Source: a virus. Taken from it: 64,000 nucleotides of DNA. The translations under genes and the position numbers were made by a program. The stretch is from positions 32,001-96,000 of the IMG/VR virus record IMGVR_UViG_3300003324_000465; one strand, written 5' to 3'. Positions within the stretch are counted from its first letter, which is position 1. The number at the start of each line of letters is the position of its first letter. Shown piece by piece: positions 2,395 to 64,000 of this stretch. The notes under the pieces are model-generated. The model was not told the DNA's origin, did not search any database, and was given only the letters and a program-made list of their open reading frames with translations.

Positions 2395-2503
2395 TATCTA
2401 AACCGTGTAATATAACGTGTAAATTTAAGAAGATTTTAGAGGATACTGGTATTTATTACTCGCGCCAGTATAACGCTTTGTACTTATAATTGCGGGCAAT
2501 TTA

Positions 2504-2806
2504 TTACTTGCTGCGTGTTAGCTCATTTCGATGGGCACCGCAATAAACATCAAACATGTTAATAGGCGAGCGGATAATGCAAGCGCATTTTTTACTGCGG
2601 TACGTATGTATAACCCGCTTGTCATCCGCATCAGGTTGCCGTGTAACCGAAGTCACTGTCGGCTGAACCCCAAGATTTTTTTTATTCTTGCTACCCTTCG
2701 GTCTGCCCCTACCACGCTTTGGCTCTGTCTCCGCTGCTGCGGCGATAGTCTTTTTATTTAGAGAACCTTTAGGACGACCACGGCCCCGTTTAATTGTGCT
2801 TTCCAT
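2504..2806 (-). CDS. Double AT-hook DNA-binding protein with C-terminal Cys/His cluster
   Basis: Two KRGRGRPKGS motifs; start reassigned to MESTIK (AAGG RBS, downstream of own promoter). Confidence 0.75.
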   Translation of the reverse strand: MESTIKRGRGRPKGSLNKKTIAAAAETEPKRGRGRPKGSKNKKNLGVQPTVTSVTRQPDADDKRVIHTYRSKKCACIIRSPINMFDVYCGAHRNELTRSK

Positions 2807-2843
2807 TGTCGTGTACCTTTCGTTATAGTGCTTACTTGCACTG

Positions 2844-2871
2844 ACTATACCACGAGATTCGATATTGTCAA
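2844..2871 (-). promoter_or_regulatory. sigma70-type promoter
   Basis: TTGACA-16 bp-TATAGT with extended -10 TG. Confidence 0.7.
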
Positions 2872-2882
2872 GAGGGAATTTT

Positions 2883-3452
2883 CTACCAATGTGAGCGGAA
2901 ATAAACAATATCGCGGAGAATAAGTGTACCATCTTCTGATACGGCTAGATTGTGTGTAGGAAACTCAAAGAGAAAATTACTATCAAAAGCTGTAGTCCAA
3001 GTATAAATATTGCGTAATGCTTCTATAATCGAGTCTGGTACATTACCATCCTGTTCTAATTTTTCGATAAAATTGTATACTACCTGATATAACAGATCGT
3101 ATCTGTTCCTAATCATATGCAAGCTAATTTCACCACGAAAAAAACCCCATGTTTCTTGAAGCACTTTAGCTACGCGCCATGCCTCTTTGTGCTTTGCCGT
3201 AAGCTTATCAGTAAATTTTGTCTTATAACACACATAGTCCCTACCACGAATAGATATGTCATCACACGTTTCCATGTACGGCACATGCTTAGATTTAATG
3301 TGGCTGTAGATTTCCTTTGTATGCTGATTCGCATGCTCATAAACGTCATAGGGTGTAATCAGGAATACTACAGAAGGATCATCTGTTGATCGATAGGCGA
3401 TGGAAAATTCGCCTTGTCCAATTTTCTTGACATTGTGCCCATGGATCATCAT
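2883..3452 (-). CDS. Protein-kinase-like fold protein (divergent catalytic loop)
   Basis: KIGQGEFSIAY glycine-rich loop; FEFPTHNLA...LILRD resembles catalytic and Mg-binding loops; start moved to MMIHG after RBS. Confidence 0.55.
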   Translation of the reverse strand: MMIHGHNVKKIGQGEFSIAYRSTDDPSVVFLITPYDVYEHANQHTKEIYSHIKSKHVPYMETCDDISIRGRDYVCYKTKFTDKLTAKHKEAWRVAKVLQETWGFFRGEISLHMIRNRYDLLYQVVYNFIEKLEQDGNVPDSIIEALRNIYTWTTAFDSNFLFEFPTHNLAVSEDGTLILRDIVYFRSHW

Positions 3453-3499
3453 GGTCGTGTTTCCTTCTGTGTACTGTGTTGCTTGTCTGCTATGGTAAC

Positions 3500-3527
3500 A
3501 GCATATCACGGTTTTTGAGGATGTCAA
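3500..3527 (-). promoter_or_regulatory. sigma70-type promoter
   Basis: TTGACA-16 bp-TATGCT with extended -10 TG. Confidence 0.7.
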
Positions 3528-3698
3528 TACCCGAATCTCATATGAGTATCAAATTGGTCATTTTTAGGCATATCAAAGCCATAAAATCAAAATTGCACAC
3601 GCATGGTATATATCTACCATTGATTCAAGGTTTACATCTCAGCGTATATGCATGTATTAAAGGGCTTCTAGCAATTCCTATAAGCGGCTTTTGTAATT

Positions 3699-3795
3699 TC
3701 ACAAAATGCTCTATAAGGCCCATAGGAAGCTTACAGAGGCATTGTAATATCAATCTGGTATAAGAGTAGGGGTGATTCGCTGTAGAGGTTCCTAT
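3699..3795 (-). repeat. ~100-bp dispersed intergenic element, copy A
   Basis: Reverse complement aligns with copy E (TGCCTCT...CTATGGGCCTT.TAG.GCATT.TGTGA). Confidence 0.7.
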
Positions 3796-3823
3796 TAAAT
3801 AATAGCTATTATTTTAAGGCTTT

Positions 3824-4177
3824 CTAATGCTTTGAATCATAATGATATTTAGGAGTATTTTTGAGGATAAGACATTGACAATCTATGTCATATTCATATT
3901 CAGCATGCTCGTTATATCTGCGTGTATGGGATTCTTGCAATTTCTTATATTCTTTATATGCGGCTAATTCATTTGCAATAATGGGTTGCCATTTACTATT
4001 CACTTCTGCTATGAGTTCTAATAGATGCGCCCAATTATTAAGCATGTGATAAAAGACCATAGCAAGATCAACGAGTTCTAACAATTGCCAGTCTTGTTTC
4101 TCGTGTGCTAATTCTACCATATGTTCACTAAGTTGAATAAAATTCCGACGATTGTATAGCAATGTATCATACTTCAT
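3824..4177 (-). CDS. Hypothetical protein
   Basis: ORF with AAGGA RBS. Confidence 0.65.
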   Translation of the reverse strand: MKYDTLLYNRRNFIQLSEHMVELAHEKQDWQLLELVDLAMVFYHMLNNWAHLLELIAEVNSKWQPIIANELAAYKEYKKLQESHTRRYNEHAEYEYDIDCQCLILKNTPKYHYDSKH

Positions 4178-4258
4178 TAGTATATCCTTTCTATGTGGAA
4201 AATTCGCGTTTTGAAATTCATTTTATAAAACTAGACTCTCCAGATTTTATTGTACCCC

Positions 4259-4552
4259 TTATGATAATAATGCGAGACACAATTCAGTCATGAGCGGCTT
4301 ATCTAGCTTTCCTTTACGCCATTCATAATAAAGCTCTTCATTATTAGGCAATTCACGAACTAGTCTGTATGCTGCGATACAGTCATCCCATATCCATGGA
4401 ATACCATTACGTTTATAGTAATCAAATTTTTCTTCTTGTCGTGTACACTTAGAAACATACATATCAGCCATTTCAAGTAGCTCTATAATATATTCATACA
4501 TAACGTATTCCTTTTGTAATAAGTGCGCGCATTTTATTAAAGATCGATCCAT
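4259..4552 (-). CDS. Hypothetical protein (true start probably MYEYII)
   Basis: ORF; AAGGA RBS precedes the internal Met. Confidence 0.55.
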   Translation of the reverse strand: MDRSLIKCAHLLQKEYVMYEYIIELLEMADMYVSKCTRQEEKFDYYKRNGIPWIWDDCIAAYRLVRELPNNEELYYEWRKGKLDKPLMTELCLALLS

Positions 4553-4746
4553 GTACCATCAATGTATTCTTGCATCTGTACATTTGTATTATCTGGTAAT
4601 AGTATATGCTCTATTAACATACCTACATATGTTTTAAAATACACAGTTAACGCACTATAATGAAATCTATACTTATATCCAGTTTGCAAAGCTAATTGTT
4701 CTGTAATAATCATTGTATTTTCTCCTATAATAATGCGCGGCGATTA

Positions 4747-4938
4747 TTATCTAGTAGTATTAAAAACATATCCATTGATAATTGTCTCGCCATTACGGTC
4801 TCTCAAGTACCATGGTCCATCTGATTGCTCATCTGCAATAGCTTGAGCATTACTTGGATCATCCGCTATAATAAGCATACAATCATAAACACGATCACAA
4901 GCATCACTCCAAAATGTGTAAATGCGTAAATTATCCAT
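4747..4938 (-). CDS. Hypothetical protein
   Basis: ORF with RBS. Confidence 0.65.
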   Translation of the reverse strand: MDNLRIYTFWSDACDRVYDCMLIIADDPSNAQAIADEQSDGPWYLRDRNGETIINGYVFNTTR

Positions 4939-5141
4939 AGTATTTTCCTTCTATAATAATCGCGGGCGATTTATCAGTAATAACGATAAGCTGTCTGACT
5001 ATTAAGCTCATACCATGTAAACCACGCATAACCCATAGTATAGGCTAATGAAAAACGCTTATGTTTTGTTGCAATATCCTTACCACTACTGTACCAAATA
5101 TCTTTCATGTGTTTATATCCTTTAAAATGCGTGCATTTTTA

Positions 5142-5408: not shown

Positions 5409-5446
5409 GATGATATAATCTCCTATAATGCCCCGCGAATTATATA

Positions 5447-11325: not shown

Positions 11326-11586
11326 TCAACTATCTGTATTATCATCTATCCTTTCAAACGACAACCATTGTCCAGCCGCAAATGCTATTATAATTCCCTT
11401 ATCATCATTAAAACTAAGTATACCATTATCACGAATAAATCCACTATATGCAAATATAGTAATTGTTGTTACTACCGGGCCAATATTTGCATCATATGGT
11501 TTGTATAACGGCATACTTTGATATTCCGGCGCAACATTCGCTACGTCCTCTTGATTTACACGTACTAAGACATCATATCTATTCAT
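11326..11586 (-). CDS. Hypothetical protein
   Basis: ORF coupled to the methyltransferase gene. Confidence 0.6.
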   Translation of the reverse strand: MNRYDVLVRVNQEDVANVAPEYQSMPLYKPYDANIGPVVTTITIFAYSGFIRDNGILSFNDDKGIIIAFAAGQWLSFERIDDNTDS

Positions 11587-12310
11587 TATTTCCTTTATCC
11601 TTTCTTGCTTTTTCTATACGTTGTTTTGCTATTTCAAAATATCCTGCGTCTTTTTCTATTCCTATAAAATGCCGCCCCGTATTTATAGCTGCTATACCAG
11701 TTGTACCACTTCCCATAACAGGATCAAGTACAATATCGCCAGGATTTGTATAGGTACTTATCAAGTATTCTAAAAGCGGTATTGGTTTCTGTGTAGGATG
11801 TACTTTACCAACTTGGCATGCATTACTTATGTTAAGAATATTTTTAGGGAAATAAAAATTGTTTGCAGTTTTAGACGGTACTAAGCCATTATAGTTATCA
11901 GATGCACTACCGCCACCTTTAGTACGTACTTTATCGCGAACTTCCATTATAGGATAATATGCACATTGCGATGTACCAAATACAAGAATATCTTCTGTAA
12001 TTTGAAATGGGCGATATTTCGCATTAGCGAATCCAGCACTATTATTTTTATTCCATATCCATTTATATTTATACATTGTAGGATTGCTTGCATAAAGCAT
12101 ATATTCAAACCCACTATTAGCAGTAAATATATATGGTGTGTGATTTTTACCCAGTCTTAATAATAGCGACCATAGTATATCAAATGGTATTATTATATCC
12201 CATTTATTTGCAGTTTTTCCATATGGCAGATCAGCGAATATCATATCCGCTATGTTTTCTGGTAATGTAGATAATATTTCTAGCGCATCTCCATTATATA
12301 GTTTGATCAA
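11579..12310 (-). CDS. Orphan N6-adenine/N4-cytosine DNA methyltransferase (beta class)
   Basis: DLPYG catalytic motif, HPTQKP, DPVMGSGTTG SAM-binding motif. Confidence 0.9.
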   Translation of the reverse strand: MIKLYNGDALEILSTLPENIADMIFADLPYGKTANKWDIIIPFDILWSLLLRLGKNHTPYIFTANSGFEYMLYASNPTMYKYKWIWNKNNSAGFANAKYRPFQITEDILVFGTSQCAYYPIMEVRDKVRTKGGGSASDNYNGLVPSKTANNFYFPKNILNISNACQVGKVHPTQKPIPLLEYLISTYTNPGDIVLDPVMGSGTTGIAAINTGRHFIGIEKDAGYFEIAKQRIEKARKDKGNNE

Positions 12311-12343
12311 TTAATTATCCTTTTTATAATAATGCGCGGGCAA

Positions 12344-12541
12344 TTATTCCATGTTACGAATATACCATAGATCAAACATTGCCATAAGAACAATGCTTGC
12401 GTATGACACATCTGTTGAAGGCTTCATTATTGCTGCTATACTAAAAATAATAACGTTCGCTATAAACAGTAATATAAATTGACTGAAGATACGCGAGTTA
12501 TGTTCTTCTATTAGTTTATTCATATATCCTTCCATATTCAA
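12344..12541 (-). CDS. Small membrane protein
   Basis: Two hydrophobic segments. Confidence 0.5.
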   Translation of the reverse strand: MNMEGYMNKLIEEHNSRIFSQFILLFIANVIIFSIAAIMKPSTDVSYASIVLMAMFDLWYIRNME

Positions 12542-12875
12542 ATAGAAATTGTTCTAGTTTTTTTATTTTAGCGGGCGTGTATTTATTTTGTATCCGTAGA
12601 ATGAATTGACCATCTGTGTATCCTGTTAATACTTCTAATATAATAAACGCCCGCGTTAATATATTTTGTATTTTTTCAGAGAGAAGCATACAGTGTAATG
12701 CTATTTCTTTTACTGTATATCCTTGTAAATACATGTCTAATATATGTATATCTCTACGTTGCAATAGTCTGTTTCTATATGCTAGTTCAATTGCTTGTGA
12801 TAAATCACTTCTTTCTTCTATTGATAAACGGTTAAGACTGTAATCTAAATATAATTCTTTAACGAGTCCTGCCAT
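12516..12875 (-). CDS. HTH protein (sigma region-4-like)
   Basis: LDMYLQGYTVKEIA helix-turn-helix pattern. Confidence 0.55.
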   Translation of the reverse strand: MAGLVKELYLDYSLNRLSIEERSDLSQAIELAYRNRLLQRRDIHILDMYLQGYTVKEIALHCMLLSEKIQNILTRAFIILEVLTGYTDGQFILRIQNKYTPAKIKKLEQFLFEYGRIYE

Positions 12876-12876
12876 G

Positions 12877-22362: not shown

Positions 22363-22591
22363 TGTTTGCCTCTCTTACTAGTGCTTCAAGTATTGGCTCA
22401 TCCTCTCCAGATAATACGCGGGCAATTATATATGCCTTCTCATCTACCGTTAAATGATAACTGCGCGGATCAAATAACGTACGATCTATCATAATATATC
22501 TTGCACGTAAACGCTGCGTTAATTCTTGTGCAATATCTGTATACGGTGTAAAAGGGTTTCTTTTTAAGAGTTCTAATATCAATTCATACAC
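22352..22591 (-). CDS. Hypothetical protein
   Basis: Coupled ORF between primase and helicase. Confidence 0.55.
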   Translation of the reverse strand: MYELILELLKRNPFTPYTDIAQELTQRLRARYIMIDRTLFDPRSYHLTVDEKAYIIARVLSGEDEPILEALVREANNAQ

Positions 22592-23459
22592 GTTGTAACC
22601 TCTTCCATGTATTAAACGGTAATGCGCTATTCACTACTATATCAAAACCTGTTTTACCATATGTAAGAATAAACTGGTCTATATCCATCTTTTTTTCACC
22701 AAACAAAGGTAAAGTTGCTATTTTAGGTCCGTCTAATTGCATAGCTGCTTTCTCAATAGCCGTTCTCAGCGAATGTACATTTTTATTCTGTGAATCAAAT
22801 AACAATATAATGTGTTGATTAGCTTGTTGTCTAAATCCCTGTTTCCAGATACCCATTCCTGGCAAGGCCATTGTAGGATAGCCTATTTGTACAGCAAGAT
22901 CGGCTTTTATTTCACCTTCTGTTAGTATAATAATGTTTTCTCTATGCAGATGGTAATTATACGGATAATCAGCCCCGCGATAATATGCGCCATTGAATGG
23001 AGATTTATATTTTAAAGGATCATCCCTAATACTTCTACCACGAATATCTACAATTGTGGTATCATCATACATATATGGAAATGTAACACGATCTGCTAAA
23101 AATGCCTCTCCATTCATAGATAAACCAGCTTCTATAGGTACTTGACCATTATAAAGCGGAGATTTGCCTTTAGGGCAATAACCTATCTTCAGATTCTTAA
23201 TAGTTACATCATTTAATCCCCGCGCATATAAATATCCTAATGCTCGCTTATCCAATGAGCTATGATAATACAATGCTGCTTTGTTGTAAAAATGACGTAT
23301 TTCATCTAAATACGGTGATCGTTCCTTTTTCTCTGACCTGTCTAATCCTTCTCTCAGGTAATAATTACATCCCGGAGAAAAGCAATAACTTAACCCATTC
23401 ATAGGAGTAACATAAAGAGTTTCTTTGCCACATATCGGGCAAGCTGTTTTATAATTCAT
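22584..23459 (-). CDS. dnaG: DnaG-type DNA primase
   Basis: N-terminal CPICG..C..C zinc domain; TOPRIM TEGEIKAD, FDS, DIDQF; start reassigned to MNYKTACP. Confidence 0.88.
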   Translation of the reverse strand: MNYKTACPICGKETLYVTPMNGLSYCFSPGCNYYLREGLDRSEKKERSPYLDEIRHFYNKAALYYHSSLDKRALGYLYARGLNDVTIKNLKIGYCPKGKSPLYNGQVPIEAGLSMNGEAFLADRVTFPYMYDDTTIVDIRGRSIRDDPLKYKSPFNGAYYRGADYPYNYHLHRENIIILTEGEIKADLAVQIGYPTMALPGMGIWKQGFRQQANQHIILLFDSQNKNVHSLRTAIEKAAMQLDGPKIATLPLFGEKKMDIDQFILTYGKTGFDIVVNSALPFNTWKRLQRV

Positions 23460-23527
23460 ATATTCATGTCTTATAAAAGGAATGAGAGCACATGCTATAT
23501 ATGCTCTCATCTTAAATAGTATTATTT

Positions 23528-27648: not shown

Positions 27649-30492
27649 TTATACTCTAAAAGATATTCCATTAAGAGAGAAAAACGCATTGCTACCTACT
27701 GTTGCTTGCACATTACCAGCGGTATCAATAGTTACTCTTGCAAATGCATCGTTAGCTACTGTTGCAAATATCTGCGCGTTAGAAGGACGATATGCCGCTG
27801 GTAATGTAAATATAGCTGCTGTGATTGTGCCGTTTTTAACTAAACCTCTTAAATGCACATATCCAAAAGCATCTTTCCAATAACCGGCGTTTTCAAAACC
27901 AGAGCCATAATTTACCCAACTATTAAGTAATGTAGGCGCAATAACTGATTCAGTAGTAATACTTCCAGTAATAGTCATACTACCACTTAGATTAAGTGTC
28001 GCATTATCAATATTCACTTCTTTAACAGAAGAAGAAGTATGAACTATAGATAATGAAGGTCCTGTACCAGCACCACTTTGATTAGCTGAAAAACGAACAG
28101 TTGACGTTTTACCTGATACCGAAAATACATCAAGATCAATTCTTGTATGATACCCAGATATAGCTTCCCCAACAATAGTAGTCTTATTTCTTAATAAATC
28201 AGTATCCTGATACGCATATATAGAACTTAACAACGTAGAACTTACATACCACTTAATCTTATTTGCGTCATTCTGACCTTGTGTTATTGAAATTCCATTA
28301 GCGTCTATTATAACTGCACCAGCACCAGCACTAATTTTACCATCACTACTTTGAATACGTACTTGTAATGTACCGCTGCTATTATATCCGCTCACACCAT
28401 TACTGTCAATAACAATACGTTGCGCGCTAGAAGCTGTTTGGATAGTGAAATTGCTACCAGTTAATACTAGATTTGTGCCATCCCACGCAAAATATGTACC
28501 TGAACCATTACCAATACTGAATTTTGTTGTGCCGCTATCATTACCTAAATAAAAACCTGTACCTGTAGCATACGCCGTCATACCACTACGAATATATCCA
28601 TTGGTATTGATTGTTAATGTACCTGTGGATGTTTGGATTGCTGATAGTGTTGTTACTGATATATGCCCCGCGTTTATTGTACTTGCCGCGATATTAATAC
28701 CTTTAATGTCTTCTGCCTGTATATCATCAGATTGTATTACTCTACGTGGGTAAAATTCCCGAAAAGAATAAGCCCCGCTGGCATTTTTATGAAAAATAAT
28801 AATATATCGTGCTTCTATAAGTGAAGGTAGATCAAATCTATATACTCCTGAAGACTTTAAGAATGAATTTGTATCTGCAAGAGATTGATTCGCATACTCA
28901 ACTAATGTTGTATTTTGTCCTGTAGTACCTGTAGCAGCTAAAGGACCTGCAAACCATCGCCATGTACTACCATCCGCTGAAGTTGCAAAATAAAATGATG
29001 TATTTGTTGCTGAGATACTTAATGTAATGGGTTTATAACGATCTAATTGGGGTCTCGACGCCTGTGTCCAGCGAAATACTGAACTAGAACCGTATGTTAC
29101 AACTGTTGTTGTAAGATCACCATCTTTAAGACCATTTAATGTTGTAGGAGATGTGGATACACTATCGCTGTATGATGTCTCAGCGCGCAATTCATCAATT
29201 GTTAATGCATCTACGTAAATACCACTAGCTACAACAGCAGTGCTTTTTCTATCATACTTATCAACTGCTTTAACACTTACATCATATGTACCCGCTGAAT
29301 TAAGCGATACCGTTTGTATATTATCTGGAGATGTAAAACTTGAAACTGTTGTTACACCATTAAGAACACTAAACTCATAGTGATCAAAATCTAATATATT
29401 TGTAGAAGGAGTAACAGTAATACCTAAACTACTAAATCCACCTGTAGCTTGCACTGTACCAAATGCATTAGGTGGGGCCATGTTAGTTGCTGTTCCCGTA
29501 GCTGCTACTGATTGTTGATCTAATAAATCGCGGGCAATTATACTATAGCTTAAAGCATAATCACCACTACTAAGCGTAGGAGTATGATCAGCTTTGTTAT
29601 TGAAATATGGATAGATAACAAAAGGTGTTTTTGTTGTAATATTTTTTGAATCTAGTGTTAATATATAATCATTTGCATTTGTAACAGTAGACCATTGAAT
29701 TGTTAAATCTTCATCAGCCGTACCATCATCGCTTTGCCATGAGTGTGCAATTCCTGAAGGTGTTCCAGGGATAGGAGCTACTACAGATACAATTTCTACA
29801 CTCGCGCCAGATGTATTACCCCATGAATTACTTGTTACATCGACAAGTACACTCGTTAATGGAGTTCCTAAACCGATACGTCTATTCTCTGCTGCTGTTA
29901 ATATAAACGGTGATTCACGCTGCCAATACGTGTTGTATAAAACTGTACCTGTTGCATTCCATATACGAATGCGCGCATTTTTATAAGCTTCGTCATTCGG
30001 CTGATCCCATGAAATAATGAGATTACTATTCTCAAATTCACCAGTTACATTCGTTACATCACTAGGAATGAGTGTGTCTTCTATAGTTGTTATATTTAGA
30101 ACATTACTCCAATCGGATTGAATTGTTCTTATACGTGGTGCTATACGTATCCAGTAGTCTGTATCAGGTTTTAAATAAAGTGAAGCAGTTAAACCATATG
30201 CAATAAATGATTCTTTATTTAATGTAAATGTGTCATTTTCAGCATACTGTACTATATAATCTTGTGGTATTTCACCATCTGGATGCTGCCATCCTATATT
30301 TACTACAATTGTAGGCGTAGCAGCACTACGAAACACTGCTTGATCAATAAATTCCAAGGTATCAATGGATTGTGGTAAGTGGATAGCCGACCCTGCTACA
30401 CTTACTGATTGTGTTATTATTTCTCCATCACCTATTTGTGATATTGCTTTATCATCTATTTGTCTTTTAGGTCTATCTTTTCGTGTAGGCAT
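27649..30492 (-). CDS. Central tail fiber / host-specificity protein with FN3-like repeats
   Basis: FN3-like W..Y..L.PDTDY segments; TGTGFYLG repeat region; C-terminal LLNSWVNY...VHLRGLVK...FTLPAAYRP receptor-binding head. Confidence 0.8.
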   Translation of the reverse strand: MPTRKDRPKRQIDDKAISQIGDGEIITQSVSVAGSAIHLPQSIDTLEFIDQAVFRSAATPTIVVNIGWQHPDGEIPQDYIVQYAENDTFTLNKESFIAYGLTASLYLKPDTDYWIRIAPRIRTIQSDWSNVLNITTIEDTLIPSDVTNVTGEFENSNLIISWDQPNDEAYKNARIRIWNATGTVLYNTYWQRESPFILTAAENRRIGLGTPLTSVLVDVTSNSWGNTSGASVEIVSVVAPIPGTPSGIAHSWQSDDGTADEDLTIQWSTVTNANDYILTLDSKNITTKTPFVIYPYFNNKADHTPTLSSGDYALSYSIIARDLLDQQSVAATGTATNMAPPNAFGTVQATGGFSSLGITVTPSTNILDFDHYEFSVLNGVTTVSSFTSPDNIQTVSLNSAGTYDVSVKAVDKYDRKSTAVVASGIYVDALTIDELRAETSYSDSVSTSPTTLNGLKDGDLTTTVVTYGSSSVFRWTQASRPQLDRYKPITLSISATNTSFYFATSADGSTWRWFAGPLAATGTTGQNTTLVEYANQSLADTNSFLKSSGVYRFDLPSLIEARYIIIFHKNASGAYSFREFYPRRVIQSDDIQAEDIKGINIAASTINAGHISVTTLSAIQTSTGTLTINTNGYIRSGMTAYATGTGFYLGNDSGTTKFSIGNGSGTYFAWDGTNLVLTGSNFTIQTASSAQRIVIDSNGVSGYNSSGTLQVRIQSSDGKISAGAGAVIIDANGISITQGQNDANKIKWYVSSTLLSSIYAYQDTDLLRNKTTIVGEAISGYHTRIDLDVFSVSGKTSTVRFSANQSGAGTGPSLSIVHTSSSVKEVNIDNATLNLSGSMTITGSITTESVIAPTLLNSWVNYGSGFENAGYWKDAFGYVHLRGLVKNGTITAAIFTLPAAYRPSNAQIFATVANDAFARVTIDTAGNVQATVGSNAFFSLNGISFRV

Positions 30493-32014: not shown

Positions 32015-33520
32015 TTAATATGAAACATAACGTATATCGGTATTATTATATGTTGTGCCTATAATAAATACATCATCTCGTGTAGGTAAATTATTTATAG
32101 GTACAATATCAATCGTCATTCGTGAACCTGTATTACTATGGCGTTTTGCTGTGATACGATATAAACCGCTATATGACCATGTTGTATAATCAAACTGTAC
32201 TATTTCTCCGATATATCTATCAGGATCATAGCCCATTCCTTCCAATGTAATAATTGCCCGCGAATTATTATAGAAGTCATAATACATCCGTATTAGTCTT
32301 TGTGCATGTACTTCACTATCTACATATACATTACTTTCAAGCTCTAATTCTGGTATTCCAGAACCATATGTTACATTACCAGATGGTCCCTCTGTTACTG
32401 GTCTACCTTGTATATTTATATCCTCAACTGTTAATGGCTCATCTGTTAGATTTTCAAAACTTACTTGTAGTAATGTTGCATTTAAATAGCTGTATGTTAA
32501 TTCATATGTAAATGCTAGTTCACTTGTAGATGTTACTTGTCTTCCATCAGGATATACTGCTTTAATACTTGTAAATGGTATATTACCCGAAGAGTCTAAC
32601 GTATATGTATACACAGGCCATTTCATTTCTATTTCTTTTGTAACAATTTCACCGGGTATCACTGCAAACGTATCATCTAATTCGTATACAGTCTGTGTCG
32701 CCTGTAAATTACGTTCTATGAACTGTGTTTTAATAGTTGCTACTTGATCGCGAGCAGTTTCTTTCTCAGATATTGAAACAAAGTCATCATCACTTATTTC
32801 AAATGGCGTGCCGTTTACTATACCAAAAGATAATGGTTGCTTGTAATATATAACTCCATCATCGTTCTGAAATAATTGACCACCTGCTGCTTTTATAAGC
32901 TTATTAGCTTCTTCCCATGCATTTTCACCACTTATCCAAGACCATTTAGGTTTTAATAAAGCTTGATCAAATGAATAATAAAATAAAGCGCTATCATATG
33001 TACTTATTTGTTCATATGGTCTACCACCAGATTCCCACATTATTCTATTTAGTAAACCTGCATTATATCCCGGCTCATTTGGATCATCTATACTAGATAA
33101 TGTTGTTTGCGTAGCTATTGGTCTACGATAAAACATTTCTGTATGTATCTTCTTCCTTTCAATAATTGCGTCCCATCCTCTTGCCTCAAATGTCAAATAA
33201 TGCCCGCTTCTTGATCTATCTGTTAATACACCTTCAAATACCTGTACAAAATCAGCAGTATCGAATGTGAAAGATATGCGCACTTTATGCAATTTCCATG
33301 CAACACTTGCAAAATCATCTGTCATTTCTATTTTAGCTTTAGGTATTGCATGTATTCCAAAAGCTAATCCATTATTATTTGCAGTTATTTCTAGCACTCC
33401 ATCTACATCGTGAATATAATCATCATTTACAGTAGAATAACTTATACCGTTGTGTATTTCTACACGATATTTAGGTAATGCAATACTGCTTTCTATTTGA
33501 TCTCTTGTAGGAAGGCTCAT
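32015..33520 (-). CDS. Tail tip/hub protein
   Basis: Follows the Dit-like gene; GGQLFQNDDGVIYY hub-type motif. Confidence 0.65.
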   Translation of the reverse strand: MSLPTRDQIESSIALPKYRVEIHNGISYSTVNDDYIHDVDGVLEITANNNGLAFGIHAIPKAKIEMTDDFASVAWKLHKVRISFTFDTADFVQVFEGVLTDRSRSGHYLTFEARGWDAIIERKKIHTEMFYRRPIATQTTLSSIDDPNEPGYNAGLLNRIMWESGGRPYEQISTYDSALFYYSFDQALLKPKWSWISGENAWEEANKLIKAAGGQLFQNDDGVIYYKQPLSFGIVNGTPFEISDDDFVSISEKETARDQVATIKTQFIERNLQATQTVYELDDTFAVIPGEIVTKEIEMKWPVYTYTLDSSGNIPFTSIKAVYPDGRQVTSTSELAFTYELTYSYLNATLLQVSFENLTDEPLTVEDINIQGRPVTEGPSGNVTYGSGIPELELESNVYVDSEVHAQRLIRMYYDFYNNSRAIITLEGMGYDPDRYIGEIVQFDYTTWSYSGLYRITAKRHSNTGSRMTIDIVPINNLPTRDDVFIIGTTYNNTDIRYVSY

Positions 33521-48868: not shown

Positions 48869-49309
48869 ATGGAAAAGACATGTATATTATGCCCCGCAAA
48901 AATACCAGTGAGAGATTATCAAAAAAAGCTTTGTTTTCCATGTTATAAAGAATATAGTCATTATATGAATGAGCCGTGGTTTTTGGAATTGGAAGTCATG
49001 CAGAAAAGACAGGATGCTATTGATCTCAGAGAATTGGAGTTAATAGAAATAGCACACGATACTAATATTACAGGTAAGCATGAACATCATGTGCGTTCAC
49101 CTACAAGATCAGGGAGACTCGTAACAGATTGGCGCTTAGAACAAAAAGTATTAGATTTGTTCGATGAATCACTTGAAAATGGAAAACGTATATCTTTGCG
49201 GGCAATATCTAAAGCGCTAGATTATAAAGTGAAGTATGTTACAGTGCGTAGGATATTACTTGACTATCGTAAAGAGCAATTTTTGAAAAAAGTTCAAAAA
49301 GATATGTAG
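48869..49309 (+). CDS. Zinc-finger/HTH putative regulator
   Basis: CILC...CFPC; SLRAISKAL...YVTVRRIL HTH-like segment. Confidence 0.55.
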   Translation: MEKTCILCPAKIPVRDYQKKLCFPCYKEYSHYMNEPWFLELEVMQKRQDAIDLRELELIEIAHDTNITGKHEHHVRSPTRSGRLVTDWRLEQKVLDLFDESLENGKRISLRAISKALDYKVKYVTVRRILLDYRKEQFLKKVQKDM

Positions 49310-50028: not shown

Positions 50029-50245
50029 ATTAGATATTACGGGAGTAAGTGGTACAGGTATTGTAGCAGAAGTGGTAGAATTTAGTGATGGTGTTTGTAT
50101 CGTTCATTGGATAGGACATATGACATTATCAAATGTTTCTTCTATTGTTATTTATAATTCGCGGGCGGATTTATTAGCAGTACATGGTCATAATGGAAAT
50201 ACAGTATTAGAGGAAATACATGGCGCTACAACAGAAATTAGATGA
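50003..50245 (+). CDS. Conserved phage hypothetical protein
   Basis: DITGVSGTGIVAE..EFSDG...HGHNG motif; start MKIY. Confidence 0.7.
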   Translation: MKIYNLNRKLDITGVSGTGIVAEVVEFSDGVCIVHWIGHMTLSNVSSIVIYNSRADLLAVHGHNGNTVLEEIHGATTEIR

Positions 50246-54306: not shown

Positions 54307-55092
54307 ATGTCATATGAAGATATAAAACATTGGAATACGCCAGAAGAATTTAATACATATCTTTTAACGCTAAAACCTCCTAAATGGTTTAAGATTATAA
54401 TTAATCATCATACATATGAACCTACTGTAGATGACTGGCGCGGGTTATCTACAATGAAAGGTATGCTTAATTATTATAAGAATAAAAAGAAATGGGACAG
54501 GTTTCCTCATTTATTTGTAGCGCCCGATGGTATCTGGCAAATGAATAAACTTAATGAAACAGGTATACATGCAAATGCAGCAAATTCTATATCTATTGGC
54601 GTTGAAGTTGTAGGTAATTACGATAAACAAGTATGGCAAGAGCCAATACGTACATTTGCATTTAAAACAAACGCTTATTTAGCTAAATGGGGTAATATAT
54701 CTTTACAGAACATATTACCTCATAGACAATATAACCCATTAAAATCATGCCCTGGAAGAGCTATAGACATGAATTGGGTACGCCAGGGAACAGCAACATA
54801 TTTACATACGGATTTGACTATGCGTAGATTCAAAGCACGTAATTCATTACCAGATGGTACGATAATAGGATATGTAAATATACGTCAAGCTCCTAATCAA
54901 TATGCGTTAAAAGCTGGCAAAATATATCCCGGCGATATTATAGAAACAATTGCTATAAAAGATGATGAGCGTAAAGAAACTATATACGGTAAAACACAAT
55001 GGTTACATATAACACATGGTGTGAATGCACGAAATGAAGATGTAAGTAATAGCGGATTTGCACACATAAGTCTTTTTGAGGAAATTACATGA
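54307..55092 (+). CDS. Endolysin: N-acetylmuramoyl-L-alanine amidase (Amidase_2) with SH3-like C-terminus
   Basis: INHHT, PHLFV, GIHA, SIGVEVVG, HR....KSCPG; VNIRQAP. Confidence 0.88.
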   Translation: MSYEDIKHWNTPEEFNTYLLTLKPPKWFKIIINHHTYEPTVDDWRGLSTMKGMLNYYKNKKKWDRFPHLFVAPDGIWQMNKLNETGIHANAANSISIGVEVVGNYDKQVWQEPIRTFAFKTNAYLAKWGNISLQNILPHRQYNPLKSCPGRAIDMNWVRQGTATYLHTDLTMRRFKARNSLPDGTIIGYVNIRQAPNQYALKAGKIYPGDIIETIAIKDDERKETIYGKTQWLHITHGVNARNEDVSNSGFAHISLFEEIT

Positions 55093-55445
55093 AAAGTCTC
55101 GTAAAGTTCTACACATTCTTACATGACAGAGATGCAAGAATAGTAGAACTTTTCTTTTTAGGTCTTAATACATATATACTTGCACTCATCATATTACCAC
55201 CATATACATATTTTGGATGGCCTTTATATTCGCGGGCAATATTTCAAAGTATTGTTGTACTATTAAATATATTAGCATTGATACAAAGAATAAAACGTGC
55301 GCGTGTTATAAGCTCAGTAGCTAATGCGTCAATAATGATATTTGTGGCAGCATCATTATTCAGAAATAGCAATCCTAATGCAGGTACATATGCACTATTA
55401 GCATTATTGGCAATATTTGTAACCTGGAAAATCAATATAAAATAA
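55089..55445 (+). CDS. Multi-TM membrane protein (lysis cassette)
   Basis: About four hydrophobic helices, coupled to the endolysin gene. Confidence 0.6.
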   Translation: MKSLVKFYTFLHDRDARIVELFFLGLNTYILALIILPPYTYFGWPLYSRAIFQSIVVLLNILALIQRIKRARVISSVANASIMIFVAASLFRNSNPNAGTYALLALLAIFVTWKINIK

Positions 55446-55844: not shown

Positions 55845-56285
55845 ATGAATTTTACATTTACACCAGAAAATGCAAAACAGTTGTTAGCAATACTATCACC
55901 TATTGCAGTAATAATAGCTGGATATGTATTTACTAAAACCAATTGGAATAAGGTTGCTAAATCTGCGGTTGTTTTTGCAATATCAGCACTGTTAGCATCA
56001 TTAAATGCATACTCCAGCGGTAATCTTGTAGATAATTTCTGGACAAACCTTACACAGATATATACATTATCTCAGATAGGATTTTGGGTTCTATTAAAAG
56101 CTGCTGGATTAGAATCATATGTTGCGCCAAAGGATGCACTTATATCTAAAGCAAGTGATGAAGTAGCAAAACAAATTGACGCGAACGTATCTTCTGATAC
56201 AGCGCGGGCAATTCTTGATCCTGACAAGACTCCTGCATTAGATGTTAATGCTTTTGTAGTAAATCAGAAAACGGATATTGTATAA
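55845..56285 (+). CDS. Holin-like membrane protein
   Basis: Two to three TM segments, last gene of the lysis cassette. Confidence 0.55.
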   Translation: MNFTFTPENAKQLLAILSPIAVIIAGYVFTKTNWNKVAKSAVVFAISALLASLNAYSSGNLVDNFWTNLTQIYTLSQIGFWVLLKAAGLESYVAPKDALISKASDEVAKQIDANVSSDTARAILDPDKTPALDVNAFVVNQKTDIV

Positions 56286-58207: not shown

Positions 58208-58234
58208 ATTATAATATTTGCGGGCAATATTTAC

Positions 58235-58504: not shown

Positions 58505-58647
58505 TTTTCTGTAGCGGATGTCAGCGATTACAACGCATTACGAGCGGGTGATTGTAGGTTCGAGTCCTACTGTCTGTACCATGTATACAGACATAGCTTA
58601 ATGGCAAAGCACCTAAAATATATCGCGGGCAATTATTCACAGAAGAA
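58505..58647 (+). ncRNA. Y RNA-like module 4 (YrlA-type) containing a circularly permuted tRNA-Val(TAC)
   Basis: Same scaffold; interior order anticodon loop - T arm - acceptor 3' strand+CCA - acceptor 5' strand - D arm. Confidence 0.85.
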
Positions 58648-58989: not shown

Positions 58990-59031
58990 TTCGCGGGCAA
59001 TTTATAAACCGTAGCAAAGGAATAAAATAAC

Positions 59032-60588
59032 ATGAGAAAAAATTTAACACAGGGATCAAAGAAAACAGTCAGTACAAAGCCGGTGGCACCAGTAGCCATG
59101 GGAGTAGCTCATAATCCTAATTATCGGTCAACACCAGTATCTTCATTTGAAGGCAATACTAACTATAAGCTTGATCCAATTGCAACATTGAAACTGGTAA
59201 CTGCAAGTTCATTTTTTGGTGAGCCTTCTTTTTATGAAGGAAATACACGTACAGCGTTATTTGAACAGACAATTGACGCGGCCCTTGATTATGATTTTTA
59301 TGCGACACTTGATTGGGCTGGTGTATTACGTAATGCGTATTATATGCGCCTTAATCCTCAAATCATCATGACAAGAGCAGCAGTGCATCCAAAGCGTGGT
59401 GAGTTTACAAAACAATATCCCGGCGCATTTAATACATTTATGGAAATTGTTGCGAAAAGACCGGATGATCTTACTGCACAGGTAGAATATTACTTGTCAA
59501 AGTTTGAAGATCGTAAGGTTCATGGGGTTAAAGCCTCTCGTATGCCTGGAATTATGAAGCGTTCAATAGCACACCGTCTTGAGCAATTTAATCGTTATCA
59601 AATGGCGAAATATGCTAATCGTGGTATCGGTTTAATTGATATAGTTCGTTTAACACATGCTCATGGAGCATTAATTAACGAACTTATGAAAACTGGCGGA
59701 ATTAGTATCGATGAGGAAGACCAAACATGGCGTACTATGCGTAGCGCTGGTAAGTCATGGACAGAGATTATTAATTCAGGCATCACACTAACACACCAAG
59801 ATATACTTTTTCAAATGCGTTCTATTTTTGATTCTGTTAAGGGTGATACTGCTCAATATATTGCGGGCAAATTTCTTAATGGGGTCAAGAATGGTAAAAT
59901 GTTCCCATATCAGTATTATATTGCTTTTCAGCAATTGAGTGAGGATACATTCAGTAATAAGATACTAGCGTTAGATACACTTCAAGAAGCCCTTGATATG
60001 TCTATTCGAGAACAGCCAAAATTAGGCGGAAGTGTTGCGGTTGTGGCAGATAATAGCGGATCTATGAATAATCCACTTAAAGTAGACGGTCATCAAGTTA
60101 CAGCAGCGGAAGTAGCTAATTTATCTGCAATTATGACAGCCTACAATGCTACTGATGGAGATGTATTCTCGTTTGGTACCACGTTAGCAAAGTTATCATA
60201 TAGCAAGCGTGATGGTATAATGACAAATGCAAAACGGCTTGCTGATTTATCTACTGGATGGGGCACAAATATGGGATTGTTCTGGCAATACGCTATACAA
60301 CATAAAAAGAGTTATGATACCGTATTTGTATATAGTGATATGCAAGCTCTACCTGTTTCTGGATACGGTTATAACAACGAAGTAAGAAACATGTATGACA
60401 TTGTGAACGAATATCGCCGCAAGCTAAATCCAAAGGTAAATGTTTTCTACGTGCAAGTAGCAGGCTATGATAATAGTGTACAACCAGATAATACATATCG
60501 TGCAACTAACCTGTCTGGATGGACAGGTAAAGAGGTTATGTATGCTGCTGCTGTAAATGCTGTGTGGGATGAAGTAGATAGTAAATAA
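59032..60588 (+). CDS. Ro60/TROVE-domain RNA-binding protein with C-terminal vWA domain
   Basis: SSFFGEPSFY, R...YMRLNP, RPDD, YQMAKY, DIVRLTH, MFPYQY; vWA MIDAS DNSGSM, GT, VYSDMQ. Confidence 0.92.
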   Translation: MRKNLTQGSKKTVSTKPVAPVAMGVAHNPNYRSTPVSSFEGNTNYKLDPIATLKLVTASSFFGEPSFYEGNTRTALFEQTIDAALDYDFYATLDWAGVLRNAYYMRLNPQIIMTRAAVHPKRGEFTKQYPGAFNTFMEIVAKRPDDLTAQVEYYLSKFEDRKVHGVKASRMPGIMKRSIAHRLEQFNRYQMAKYANRGIGLIDIVRLTHAHGALINELMKTGGISIDEEDQTWRTMRSAGKSWTEIINSGITLTHQDILFQMRSIFDSVKGDTAQYIAGKFLNGVKNGKMFPYQYYIAFQQLSEDTFSNKILALDTLQEALDMSIREQPKLGGSVAVVADNSGSMNNPLKVDGHQVTAAEVANLSAIMTAYNATDGDVFSFGTTLAKLSYSKRDGIMTNAKRLADLSTGWGTNMGLFWQYAIQHKKSYDTVFVYSDMQALPVSGYGYNNEVRNMYDIVNEYRRKLNPKVNVFYVQVAGYDNSVQPDNTYRATNLSGWTGKEVMYAAAVNAVWDEVDSK

Positions 60589-61295: not shown

Positions 61296-61333
61296 TAATC
61301 TACGCCGTATCTCTCACTAGTATGTTTTCCTAG

Positions 61334-61882
61334 TGCAGTATAGTGAGATGTATCTAAACTAGGACGCGGAATAAATGAATCGTAACAATTGCGAAACTGA
61401 TAGCTAATTGCTTAGGCAAGCGGTGACGCAGATAGGTGTTACGTGGAGTTGTTAACTACTAATCAATGAAGCTGTAGGCAACATGCGTTATGTGGAGATT
61501 AGAATAATAGCTAACAGCGAAAGAGCAACAAGAGTCGCAAGCTCCGTGCTGTGGATTTGCTGCACAGCGTTAACATGCAGAATGGGTACAATAGGTTATG
61601 AAATGTTTCTATTGTATGGCTCTGCAATAACATTTCCCGCGTTGTATTAAACTCGCTATTTGACGTACACGCGGTTATAATAATAGTGATGGTACTCTGC
61701 CCATTTAGAGCCTTACCTTTAAGCTGTAAGCGTAAGTAATCAGCAGAGAGACAGCTATTGACAAATGCTCATGTACGCTACTATAAAAATGGATGACACC
61801 ACAGTAAAATACAGAGTGTAGCTTAGAGTTTGTCAATATTGCGAGCAATTATTTGTAAAGTGTACGTTACTGTGTGCTGTAT
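61334..61882 (+). ncRNA. Candidate large (~550 nt) structured ncRNA
   Basis: No long ORF, apparently GC-richer than flanks, 5'/3' ends pair, many nested helices, GNRA loops and possible pseudoknots. Confidence 0.6.
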
Positions 61883-61902
61883 CTCTCAAAGGATGAATAT
61901 AT

Positions 61903-61979
61903 GCCCGTATAGCCAAACTGGATGAAGGCACATGTCTACGAAACATGTAATGTGGGTTCGAGTCCTGCTACGGGTGCCA
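61903..61979 (+). tRNA. tRNA-Arg (ACG)
   Basis: Cloverleaf, CTACGAA loop, GCCA. Confidence 0.92.
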
Positions 61980-62124
61980 ATTGATACAATACTATCATCA
62001 TATTTCTCTATGCGGCCAATAGAGCCAAAAAGATATTTATTATCTTTTCCATAAACCATAAAAAAATGAATAGGTTTCATCATGTCAGTGATTATTCTGA
62101 TTTATTAGAAGCATTAAATTTTGT

Positions 62125-62202
62125 GCCGTAATAGCAAAAGCTGGCTTTGCAGGGGCCTTTTAAGCCTTTTAAACGCGGGTTCGATTCCTGCTTACGGCAC
62201 CA
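62125..62202 (+). tRNA. tRNA-Lys (TTT)
   Basis: Cloverleaf, CTTTTAA loop, ACCA. Confidence 0.9.
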
Positions 62203-62312
62203 CTCATCCATGGAGTTTATCAATCATTTGTACATGGAGTAGTTATAAAAATAGTTGACTTCTATAATAATGCCCCGCAGATTATTATAGTCGTAATTAC
62301 TTAGCGGGATAT

Positions 62313-62388
62313 GCCAGATTAACCTTATGTGGTAAAGGTTCTGTTTGAAGCACAGAAATAACGTGTTCGAGTCACGTATCTGGCACCA
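62313..62388 (+). tRNA. tRNA-Phe (GAA)
   Basis: Cloverleaf, TCTGT-TTGAAGC-ACAGA, ACCA. Confidence 0.85.
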
Positions 62389-62523
62389 CGGAAGGCAATT
62401 ATTTGTTATATCAAAATATACTGTCTGATCAACGGTATATGGAGATATGGCGGTATCTGATCAATATAGCGCATAGTTCTAGCGTAATGCTAGAATATAT
62501 GGCAAATAAACCTTCAGTATTAT

Positions 62524-62599
62524 ACCAGTATAGCACAATTGGTAGTGTAGCAAGCTGTTAACTTGTATTGTCTAGGTTCGATTCCTAGTGCTGGTGCCA
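62524..62599 (+). tRNA. tRNA-Asn (GTT)
   Basis: Cloverleaf, CTGTTAA loop, GCCA. Confidence 0.92.
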
Positions 62600-62855
62600 A
62601 TAATAGTATTGTTGATACATTTGAAAGTATAGTGGGCGGCTGAATATAAAGGCTTATCGTGTGAAAATAACGATAGCAATACTATTTTTATATACTGGTA
62701 TACAAAATTGGTGATGTATATGTATAGTAAATTTATTCTACTGTTTCGGCGGAAGCATTACTTGTAACATGAATAAAGCCAGTATTTAATAACATAAATA
62801 ATAATATGCTATCATTGTCCAAATGGAGATAATTGCTTTATATATGCTCTAAAAA

Positions 62856-63188
62856 GTGTATTTGTGCAGTGTTGACACGTTGAATAATTCGCGGGCAATT
62901 TATAAAAAAAGGATGTATGTTATGAGATTGTATGATTTTATATTGTTACATGGAGATATTGAAGATTACATCGATTTTGGCTATAGCCTTAATAGTAATA
63001 GTAGTATAGAAGAGCGTGTAAATTATATTTTGGAACGATCTAAGTTTCAGAGTCTACTTAATACACTAGAATTATTAGCTTCGTTAAACACAACAAATGA
63101 AGTTGAACGTAGTTTATTGCTCGCGTCATATTCAAAGACAATTACATTAAAATCTATTTGCATAAAGTTTGGATGGACTCTGAAATAA
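62856..63188 (+). CDS. Hypothetical protein (start probably MRLYDF)
   Basis: AAGGA RBS before the internal Met. Confidence 0.55.
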   Translation: MYLCSVDTLNNSRAIYKKRMYVMRLYDFILLHGDIEDYIDFGYSLNSNSSIEERVNYILERSKFQSLLNTLELLASLNTTNEVERSLLLASYSKTITLKSICIKFGWTLK

Positions 63189-63217
63189 TAATCCGCGAAT
63201 TATGAGAGGATATTGCT

Positions 63218-63388
63218 ATGTTAGATAAAGCAATTAAACACGGTAAAGAAAAACGTAAACCATATCGTAAATCTAAGGCATTTGATAAGTCTTGTCGTAA
63301 TCATGGATATTGCCCATACTGCCGTAATAATAGACTTTTTAAGAATAAAATGCGCGCACTTATTACAAAAGATGATATAGAGGAATAA
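63218..63388 (+). CDS. Small basic Cys/His protein (56 aa, not in ORF track)
   Basis: MLDKAIKHGKEKRKPY...SCRNHGYCPYC; GAGGA RBS. Confidence 0.7.
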   Translation: MLDKAIKHGKEKRKPYRKSKAFDKSCRNHGYCPYCRNNRLFKNKMRALITKDDIEE

Positions 63389-63391
63389 ATT

Positions 63392-63577
63392 ATGGTGATG
63401 GAAACAATGCTTATACATTATGGAGTTAGAGGGACTATTAAACTGTTAATAGCTGCATGCTGGAAAAAACATGAACATTACAAACCCCTAGAATCAGTGT
63501 TTTCGATATGGGCTAAAATACTTGAAAAGCACTTAGACTTAATGTATGAAGAATATCAAGAAAAGTTTAATCTTTAA
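63392..63577 (+). CDS. Hypothetical protein, paralog 1
   Basis: Highly similar to 63625-63807. Confidence 0.7.
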   Translation: MVMETMLIHYGVRGTIKLLIAACWKKHEHYKPLESVFSIWAKILEKHLDLMYEEYQEKFNL

Positions 63578-63624
63578 ATAAAATATGTGTACTTATTACA
63601 AAAGATGATATAGGATAATAGATA

Positions 63625-63807
63625 ATGGAAAACATGCTTATACAACATGGAGTTAAAGGAGTTATTAGATTACTTATTATTGCTTGCTGGAAGCGACATG
63701 AACACTATGTGCCGCGTGAATCTGTCTTTTCTATATGGGCACGTGTATTAGAAAAATATATCGATCTTATAGAGCAAGAAGCTAAAGAAGGTATTAAGAA
63801 CTTATAA
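63625..63807 (+). CDS. Hypothetical protein, paralog 2
   Basis: Highly similar to 63392-63577. Confidence 0.7.
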   Translation: MENMLIQHGVKGVIRLLIIACWKRHEHYVPRESVFSIWARVLEKYIDLIEQEAKEGIKNL

Positions 63808-63808
63808 T

Positions 63809-63882
63809 GCTACCATCGTCTAAAGGTAAGACTCTTCTCTGATATAGAAGGTATTGCAGTTCAAATCTGTATGGTAGTACCA
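63809..63882 (+). tRNA. tRNA-Ile (GAT)
   Basis: Cloverleaf, CTGATAT loop, ACCA. Confidence 0.88.
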
Positions 63883-64000
63883 TGAGCGAGCTAGATATGT
63901 TGAAGTGGAGCATACTATAGTTTATGCATATTGACATGTGTGTAAACTTGATATATTTATATGTCAGCGTGAATATATTGCCCGCGAATTATATATGCGT

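Follow-up and report, generated by a model that had tools for sequence, protein, structure and literature searches.

The sequence analysed here is a window of 64,000 nucleotides, bases 32001-96000 of the 106,876-bp phage genome in the IMG/VR record IMGVR_UViG_3300003324_000465; positions are those of the window unless genome coordinates are indicated. The 10-mer CGCGGGCAAT, singled out as an over-represented motif in a preliminary description made from the letters of the window, is the commonest spelling of a dispersed composite element and not a stand-alone motif. The element has a total length of about 22 bp and is composed of three parts: a left A/T arm of about 7 bp (..ATAAT), a CpG-rich core of 7-9 G/C nucleotides, and a right A/T arm of about 7 bp (ATTAT..), the start of which is the 'AAT' of CGCGGGCAAT. 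It is selected at the DNA level, by architecture rather than by an exact core, and the phage probably keeps its roughly ninety sites as protein-binding sites.

All ten exact copies of CGCGGGCAAT in the whole genome fall inside the window, at the coordinates and on the strands originally given for them, eight on the + strand and two on the - strand (Table 1). Against these ten, dinucleotide shuffles give an expectation of 0.07 copies, and for the whole 106.9-kb genome Markov models of orders 1, 3 and 5 give 0.0, 0.28 and 1.1, and at most 4. Coding sequence (CDS) contains four copies, compared to 0.14 expected under a synonymous shuffle and 0.03 under a codon-order shuffle, and none of 300 shuffles reaches four. 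The preliminary description had named a loss of enrichment under a higher-order Markov or codon-aware null model as what would speak against the motif; since no shuffle reaches the observed count in CDS and the expectations are low, the over-representation persists under both kinds of null. The GC content, estimated at about one-third, was measured at 35%, and the A/T flanks of the 10-mer are genuine, reaching about 7 nt on each side. Near matches exist at all the sites listed for them, although 50160 has the core only and 59862 differs by two mismatches. Sites do lie both within genes and at gene junctions: four of the exact copies are of junction type, four are within open reading frames (ORFs) and two are in the tRNA/non-coding RNA (ncRNA) island. 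The excess of + strand copies regardless of transcription was counted correctly, but a ratio of 8:2 does not by itself reach significance (binomial p=0.11). CGCGGGCAAT is repeated in no relative examined, and the same 16-mer was found in other viral contigs as four singletons only.

The wider family was defined strictly as a run of seven to nine G/C nucleotides (S7-9) with at least 6 of 7 A/T positions on each side. There are 91 such copies in the genome, 52 of them in the window, which is about one per ~1.2 kb, on both strands; a looser form, W3-S6-9-W3, has 59 sites in the window. Compared to the geometric expectation for the genome, pure G/C runs are in excess at lengths of 7 nt (94 vs 43, 2.2x), 8 nt (47 vs 16, 2.9x) and 9 nt (12 vs 6, 2.0x), while runs of 3-6 nt are at or under expectation and runs of at least 10 nt are absent (0 vs 3.5 expected). 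A/T arms fulfilling the definition on both sides accompany 59.5% of the S7-9 runs and 13.4% of the S4-5 runs. The A/T excess ends exactly 7 nt from the core on each side, intragenic copies included, and the arms prefer T at -1 and A at +1, with ATAAT to the left and ATTAT to the right. The form W5-S6-10-W5 occurs 75 times, compared to 6-14 under Markov orders 1-5.

No one sequence defines the core: among 76-97 sites there are more than 50 spellings, and only arm composition and core length are shared. CG is present in 99% of the cores and CGCG in 55%, against 25% expected. The most frequent core is CGCGGGC, with 15 copies on the + strand and 6 on the - strand. A general G-versus-C strand polarity of the family cores was not detected, nor was a fixed spacing of the ATAAT and ATTAT half-sites, spacers of 8, 9, 11 and 12 all being in use. 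Of the eight palindromic pure-G/C hexamers, seven are missing or almost missing from the whole genome (GGGCCC, GGCGCC, GCCGGC, CGGCCG and CCCGGG, 0 copies each; CGCGCG, 1; CCGCGG, 2), while GCGCGC has 34 copies, the mean over all 64 G/C hexamers being 7.8. This looks like restriction-site avoidance within the cores, with one site exempt.

In 54 long ORFs 34 sites are found, compared to 5.5 under the codon-order shuffle and 7.1 under the synonymous shuffle, and these are distributed over the three frames as 17, 10 and 7. All-G/C codons of Ala, Gly, Pro and Arg are chosen in 26-31% of cases if the neighbouring codon is also one of these, against 17-20% otherwise. As all three frames are served via synonymous codon choice, selection acts at the DNA level and on the architecture, not on the exact core. 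The enrichment outlasts a Markov model of order 5 as well as the codon-aware nulls, which supports a selection independent of coding, and together with the occurrence of sites in genes and at junctions this makes the DNA-binding or DNA-organising role then proposed a reasonable one.

About three quarters of the sites (~76) are intragenic, and the intergenic share, 21 of 97 sites, exceeds the 11.8 expected by area (1.8x). Some 15-20 copies are at junctions; roughly 15 intergenic ones are located 21-43 nt 5' of a start codon, and their right arm leads into the Shine-Dalgarno sequence, as in TGAATAATA-GCCGCGC-AATATATCACAGAAAGG-N9-ATG. Sites are densest in the small-gene and tRNA regions. The spacing between copies is Poisson-like and intragenic positions are uniform along genes, which fits a distributed and not a positional function. 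Regular spacing, of the Okazaki or packaging type, was rejected (coefficient of variation 0.87-1.0, within the random range), and a preference for gene 3' ends, where sites might serve as internal promoters for the next genes, is ruled out by the uniform positions. At several junctions (genome 23.7-24.6 kb and window 2138) a near-identical cassette of about 30 bp is found, TG(A/T)ATAATA-GCCGCGC-A.TATATACAGAAAGG, which suggests that junction sequences were duplicated or recombined among small genes.

Table 1. Copies of the element and candidate reader proteins in window coordinates; for genes mentioned, the strand is in brackets.
Feature	Position	Strand	Context
Exact CGCGGGCAAT	12335..12344	+	Junction, just 5' of ribosome-binding site; core 24 nt 5' of start of N6/N4 DNA methylase gene 11579-12310 (-); gene-strand (-) reading GGAATAATT-GCCCGCGC-ATTATTATAAAAAGGA
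Exact copy	22417..22426	+	Junction of primase-like gene 22584-23531 (-) and DnaB-like helicase gene 21124-22362 (-), just 5' of ribosome-binding site; gene-strand reading TATAAT-T-GCCCGCG-TATTATCT-GGAGAGG-ATG
Exact copy	29529..29538	+	Within 947-aa tail-protein gene 27649-30492 (-), antisense to the gene
Exact copy	32253..32262	-	Within 501-aa gene 32015-33520 (-); perfect 8-bp A/T inverted arms (TAATAATT / AATTATTA)
Exact copy	55231..55240	+	Within ORF 55089-55445 (+)
Exact copy	56203..56212	+	Within ORF 55845-56285 (+); poorest A/T flanks of the ten
Exact copy	58624..58633	+	tRNA/ncRNA island; overlaps 3' end of sub-threshold YrlA-like match 58521-58632
Exact copy	58992..59001	+	Junction type; ~30 nt 5' of ATG of Ro60/TROVE-like gene 59032-60588 (+); AGGA ribosome-binding site after the copy
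Exact copy	62890..62899	+	Junction type; GAATAATT before the copy; ATG with AAGGA before it, 22 nt after the 10-mer
Exact copy	63977..63986	-	tRNA/ncRNA island; intergenic, after tRNA-Ile (63809-63882)
One-mismatch copy TGCGGGCAAT	2491..2500	+	4 nt beyond stop codon of AT-hook gene
One-mismatch copy CGCGGGCGAT	4961..4970	+	Junction, 23 nt 5' of start of gene 4747-4938 (-), adjoining its ribosome-binding site
One-mismatch copy TGCGGGCAAT	49197..49206	+	Within gene 48869-49309 (+)
Family member, core CGCGGGCGG	50160..50168	+	52 nt 5' of large-terminase gene start
One-mismatch copy CGCGGGCAAA	57771..57780	+	Between tRNA-Pro and tRNA-Trp
One-mismatch copy TGCGGGCAAT	58219..58228	+	ncRNA island
Two-mismatch near match	59862		Position as listed in the preliminary description
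Family, junction examples	2138-2144, 4735-4742, 5430-5437		
Family, intragenic examples	45324-45330, 53189-53195		Ribonucleotide reductase gene and portal gene, respectively
P0121, candidate reader	2504..2806	-	~100 aa; two AT-hooks KRGRGRPKGS, RGRP cores 24 residues apart; conserved C-terminal Cys/His motif; longest ORF reaches 2932, orthologues begin at Met at 2806
P0122, helix-turn-helix (HTH) protein	12516..12875	-	Orthologue in G001, which is without the element
P0123, Zn-ribbon and HTH protein	48869..49309	+	Orthologues in G001, G002 and G003, i.e. regardless of the element

The phage belongs to a sizeable uncultured group with genomes of about 100 kb from soil and groundwater metagenomes. 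Megablast detected no close cultured relative, and among cultured phages the portal protein matches only those of Bacillus Basilisk-like phages, at 26-28% identity. The closest portal (82% identical) is on a 107,699-bp contig; further relatives stem from 0.1-um fractions of Hainich groundwater and from soil metagenomes. The element is dense in some relatives with a portal 59-65% identical and absent from others. Compared to 0.85 strict sites per kb in this phage, there are 1.12 in G002 (locus L007, portal 64% identical), 0.74 in G003 (L011, 65%), 0.38-0.45 in L092, L093 and L009 (61-62%), 0.20 in L004, the portal-region locus of G001 (65%), and 0.00-0.11 in L065 and L069 (43-45%). More distant relatives are without the element as well, among them these last two, with 34% and 31% GC, respectively; as such A/T-rich relatives do not carry it, it is not a by-product of base composition. 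G001 (IMGVR_UViG_3300003267_000247; 55 kb, 40% GC) is syntenic with 42-88 kb of the genome and has essentially no S7-9 excess, whereas the equally distant G002 and G003 carry the element; this presence and absence offers a natural contrast for finding the protein that reads it. The site upstream of the terminase gene keeps its place between the phage and G002 with a different core (CCGCGCCG in G002). Some intragenic positions are common to relatives at conserved Arg-Gly or Pro-Arg dipeptides, and most turn over.

One relative, a 4.5-kb contig (L080, LDIY01000010.1) with a portal 66% identical, is binned into a soil metagenome-assembled genome (MAG) of the candidate division TM6 (Dependentiae). 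This MAG, the only bacterial one with a related portal and not a proven host, has no S7-9 excess, and on this basis a host-wide compositional feature was rejected. The TM6 MAG and the groundwater and soil origins are a possible hint to host or habitat only.

The genome is a circular assembly with 25-bp identical ends and 35.2% GC. In genome coordinates, a block of - strand genes extends from ~23.4 to 80.6 kb and a block of + strand genes from 80.9 kb through the genome end to ~21.5 kb, and GC skew tracks gene orientation. The genes encode the large terminase and portal, a family-A DNA polymerase, ribonucleotide reductase, DnaB-like helicase and DnaG-like primase, and furthermore RecA, ThyX, a PD-(D/E)XK nuclease, three DNA methylases, HNH nucleases, an RNA ligase, an FtsK/SpoIIIE-like ATPase and a Ro60/TROVE-like protein; the window also carries an island of ten tRNAs. 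Integrase, resolvase, a sigma-70 domain and a single-subunit RNA polymerase were not detected in the phage genome, and no repressor stood out in the scanned proteins, which comprise only part of the small ORFs. A free-standing HNH endonuclease with a single AT-hook-like KKGRPRK is encoded at L002:1534-2229 (-), corresponding to genome 21534-22229; its gene is alone on the - strand where the two gene blocks converge. The large terminase (window 50220-52805, +) is unusually long with 861 aa: the terminase match spans only residues ~497-833, and a large unassigned N-terminal part, the length of which is conserved across relatives, is outside the match. Within the tRNA island a sub-threshold Rfam match to YrlA (Y RNA-like), at window 58521-58632 (+) and with 30 bits against a gathering score of 69, is located just 5' of the Ro60 von Willebrand factor A (vWA)/TROVE-like gene.

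Candidate binders put forward in the preliminary description were the double AT-hook protein (P0121) and two HTH proteins (P0122 and P0123). The orthologues of both HTH proteins in syntenic but element-free G001 argue against either as the reader. P0121 remains a candidate: the protein is real, it is conserved in the closest relative, where its orthologue is on the same contig as the closest portal, and it fits the geometry of the site. It has a sub-threshold match to the Pfam AT_hook family. No relatives of P0121 were found in IMG/VR or in five related fragments, which do not cover its region, and in Pfam and PHROGs the three candidate proteins match no family apart from weak HTH hits. The consensus selected by HMGA2 in systematic evolution of ligands through exponential enrichment (SELEX) is ATATT-CGCG-AWWATT and ATATT-GCGC-AWWATT, and multi-AT-hook proteins prefer two A/T tracts around a short CpG core (PMC7279267). 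Because HMGA2 selects sites composed of an A/T tract, CGCG and an A/T tract, P0121 is the best candidate.

We tentatively read the element as a dispersed binding site recognised by shape and composition, with P0121 as the best candidate reader and a regulatory side-effect at junctions. Two A/T tracts with a narrow minor groove would be set at a fixed distance by the rigid GC core; P0121, HMGA-like with its two AT-hooks and Cys/His tail, would coat the genome there, or organise it; and binding at the 15-20 junction copies abutting a ribosome-binding site may modulate expression of the small-gene clusters. A number of observations speak against such a reading. A genome with 65% A/T offers thousands of A/T tracts to AT-hooks, so selection must be on the GC core, which an AT-hook alone does not read, and the core of the HMGA2 site is 4 bp and not 7-9 bp. 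Orthologues of P0121 are known only from the two nearest relatives; the records of G002 and G003, which carry the element, are fragments that do not span the P0121 region. The strand bias of CGCGGGC (15:6) and of the 8-mer GCGGGCAA contained in the 10-mer (15:2, see below) is not explained by a model based on shape and composition.

The pairing of the two arms bears on the same question. The mean contiguous arm stem is 1.73, compared to the 1.31 that the arm consensus by itself gives, and 30 of 82 sites lack a base pair adjoining the core. There is, in addition, a subset with long, sometimes non-consensus yet complementary arms, 11 sites pairing over 5 bp or more where 4.6 are expected (p=0.005); this subset points to a symmetric dimer rather than to flexible hooks and thus also counts against P0121. 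A hairpin or intrinsic terminator was rejected: seven of eight sites tested fold no better than shuffles, the copy at 32253 being the sole one that does, and no T run follows the site. Poor folding, weak arm pairing and unfixed spacing exclude a hairpin or terminator and, for most copies, argue against a rigid symmetric operator.

A promoter-type element is a rather doubtful alternative. The left arm would be the -10 hexamer WATAAT, the G/C run the discriminator and the A after the core the transcription start, with host RNA polymerase acting at least at the junction copies before small genes, tRNAs and the Ro60 gene. The stringently controlled promoter rrnB P1 has this organisation, TATAAT-GCGCCACC-A, with a GC-rich discriminator. 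In the phage, 66 WATAAT hexamers abut an S6-9 run, as a -10 element with a GC-rich discriminator would, and the 7-9 nt of the core equal the distance from -10 to start. Of 12 occurrences of the directional form G(A/T)ATAAT-W-core, 9 are in sense orientation, the roughly 15 intergenic copies upstream of start codons stand directly before the ribosome-binding site in gene orientation, and both the density peaks in small-gene and tRNA regions and the intergenic excess are as expected of promoters. However, the arms show no -35 signal, the score distribution before the 66 WATAAT-core arms being equal to that of control hexamers, and the canonical TGn extension is present in 5 of 66 only, while ordinary TTGACA-N16-18-TATAAT-like promoters exist separately, elsewhere on the sense strand. 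Within the + block, CGCGGGC cores that have a TGAATAAT arm are often antisense, and a sigma factor or phage RNA polymerase able to supply a new specificity was not detected. The intragenic majority, uniformly placed and on either strand, cannot be explained by a promoter role, though the junction copies may act in transcription.

The strand bias of the word itself is suggestive. The 8-mer GCGGGCAA has 15 copies on the + strand and 2 on the - strand (n=17; binomial p=0.002, uncorrected), the ratio being 10:1 in the + block and, without significance of its own, 5:1 in the - block; as several cores were inspected, this p-value needs correction. In CDS it occurs 8 times against 0.7-0.8 expected under the codon-aware nulls. 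The CGCGGGC core stays + oriented even where the directional arm faces the opposite way, and the bias is gone at two mismatches to CGCGGGCAAT. The few - strand copies with at most one mismatch cluster at 93.6-98.1 kb and 7.0 kb of the genome, as if polarity flipped near 95 kb (p=0.07); the window part of this cluster is 61632-63986 and beyond (genome ~93-98 kb). If the circle is divided into two arcs of opposite polarity, 18 of 20 sites agree with the division, but this is not significant (p=0.07). Of the Chi/KOPS-type signal suggested in the preliminary description, the short G-rich over-represented word is thus retained, while the polarity rests on few sites.

It is unlikely, but in keeping with this bias, that (T/G)CGCGGGCAAT is a strand-polar signal laid over the general element, either a T5/tf-type nick site or a Chi/KOPS-like guide that a nuclease or translocase would follow. 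In phage tf, 14 nick sites share the 9-bp consensus TACT/RTGMC, on one strand only and despite convergent transcription, T5 has the GC-rich major nick consensus R/GCGCRGG, and the nick sites of both ignore transcription direction (PMC3517423). The one-strand sites of tf and T5 are the parallel for the 15:2 ratio of GCGGGCAA across both transcription blocks and for the retained + orientation of the core, and the HNH nucleases, one with an AT-hook, and the FtsK/SpoIIIE-like ATPase could provide the machinery. Against such a signal, the opposite strand carries two of the ten exact copies, the polarity does not survive two mismatches or reach significance in the - block or in the two-arc test, and known nick, Chi and KOPS sites do not require A/T arms. 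A combination of the two ideas, that is a phage 'chromatin code' of about 90 codon-embedded sites read by the HMGA-like P0121 for the organisation or regulation of the genome plus CGCGGGCAAT kept strand-polar for nicking or for motor guidance, also appears rather improbable.

That the element has no function, and arises as a side product of biased mutation or repair, or of preferred codon pairs, in an A/T-rich genome, could be argued from the frequent coincidence of cores with conserved Arg-Gly, Pro-Arg and Ala-Arg dipeptides. This is quite unlikely, given that the enrichment outlasts the synonymous and codon-order shuffles in all three frames, that the 7-9 length window is sharp and the A/T arms are purer than background, and that the element is also found in non-coding DNA and is missing from equally A/T-rich relatives. 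Core sites for recombination (gene swapping of the dif/pdif or lox type, with inverted arms around an 'address' of 6-9 bp) are very improbable: the geometry of two arms and an asymmetric 7-9 bp centre, the excess arm palindromy with compensatory variants in some copies, and the copies at junctions of small accessory genes all fit, and one orientation for all copies of a core would avoid inversions, but most copies are within essential genes, arm palindromy is weak at most sites (30 of 82 being unpaired next to the core), and the genome has neither a tyrosine nor a serine recombinase (PF00589 and PF00239 absent, positive controls matched).

Dispersed DNA signals that take precedence over codon choice are uncommon and instructive: a piece of machinery came to light through each of Chi, KOPS, stoperators and the T5/tf nick sites. 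Here the selection is on an architecture, arm composition and core length, and not on a fixed word, in an uncultured clade of ~100-kb soil and groundwater phages, and such an element would confound promoter and motif predictors on these genomes. No described equivalent was found in the literature searched. The PeSLs of T4-type phages are stem-loops of about 50 bp with a full promoter and are intergenic only; they resemble the element as short repeats at junctions of small early-type genes, whereas the phage element is without a stable stem and mostly in genes. The stoperators of cluster A mycobacteriophages are near-identical asymmetric sites of 13-14 bp, oriented with transcription and bound by the immunity repressor. 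Stoperators and the element alike comprise dozens of short dispersed phage sites, some of them intragenic, but the cores described here vary freely, their orientation ignores transcription (CGCGGGC being on + in both gene blocks), and neither a repressor among the proteins scanned nor an integrase was seen; a degenerate family with more than 50 cores makes a sequence-specific operator of the stoperator type, as earlier suggested for the 10-mer, unlikely. The stringent-type sigma-70 promoters with a GC-rich discriminator, rrnB P1 and tyrT, share with the element WATAAT followed by 7-8 G/C and an A, and the junction copies, too, are 20-40 nt 5' of starts and near tRNA genes, but the phage sites have no -35 or TG over background and are mostly intragenic and on either strand.

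The nick sites of T5, BF23, tf/LUZ24-like and phiKMV-like phages (PMC3517423) are alike in having a 7-10 bp consensus in many copies, almost all on one strand whatever the transcription direction, and T5 R/GCGCRGG, too, is rich in GC and stands in an A/T-rich genome. They differ in that CGCGGGCAAT has 2 of 10 copies on the other strand and lies within a non-polar family with A/T arms, in a phage which is unrelated to these groups; should the polar 10-mer mark nicks, the unexplained T5/tf phenomenon would extend to a new phage group. With the HMGA2-type sites (PMC7279267) the element has in common A/T tracts of 5-7 bp around a CpG-rich G/C core, suited to groove-shape reading, in a phage that encodes a tandem-RGRP protein. 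The differences are the longer core, a bacteriophage instead of eukaryotic chromatin, and the ~90 copies embedded in coding sequence. If P0121 does read these sites, they would be a bacterial-virus counterpart of HMGA-type architectural binding.

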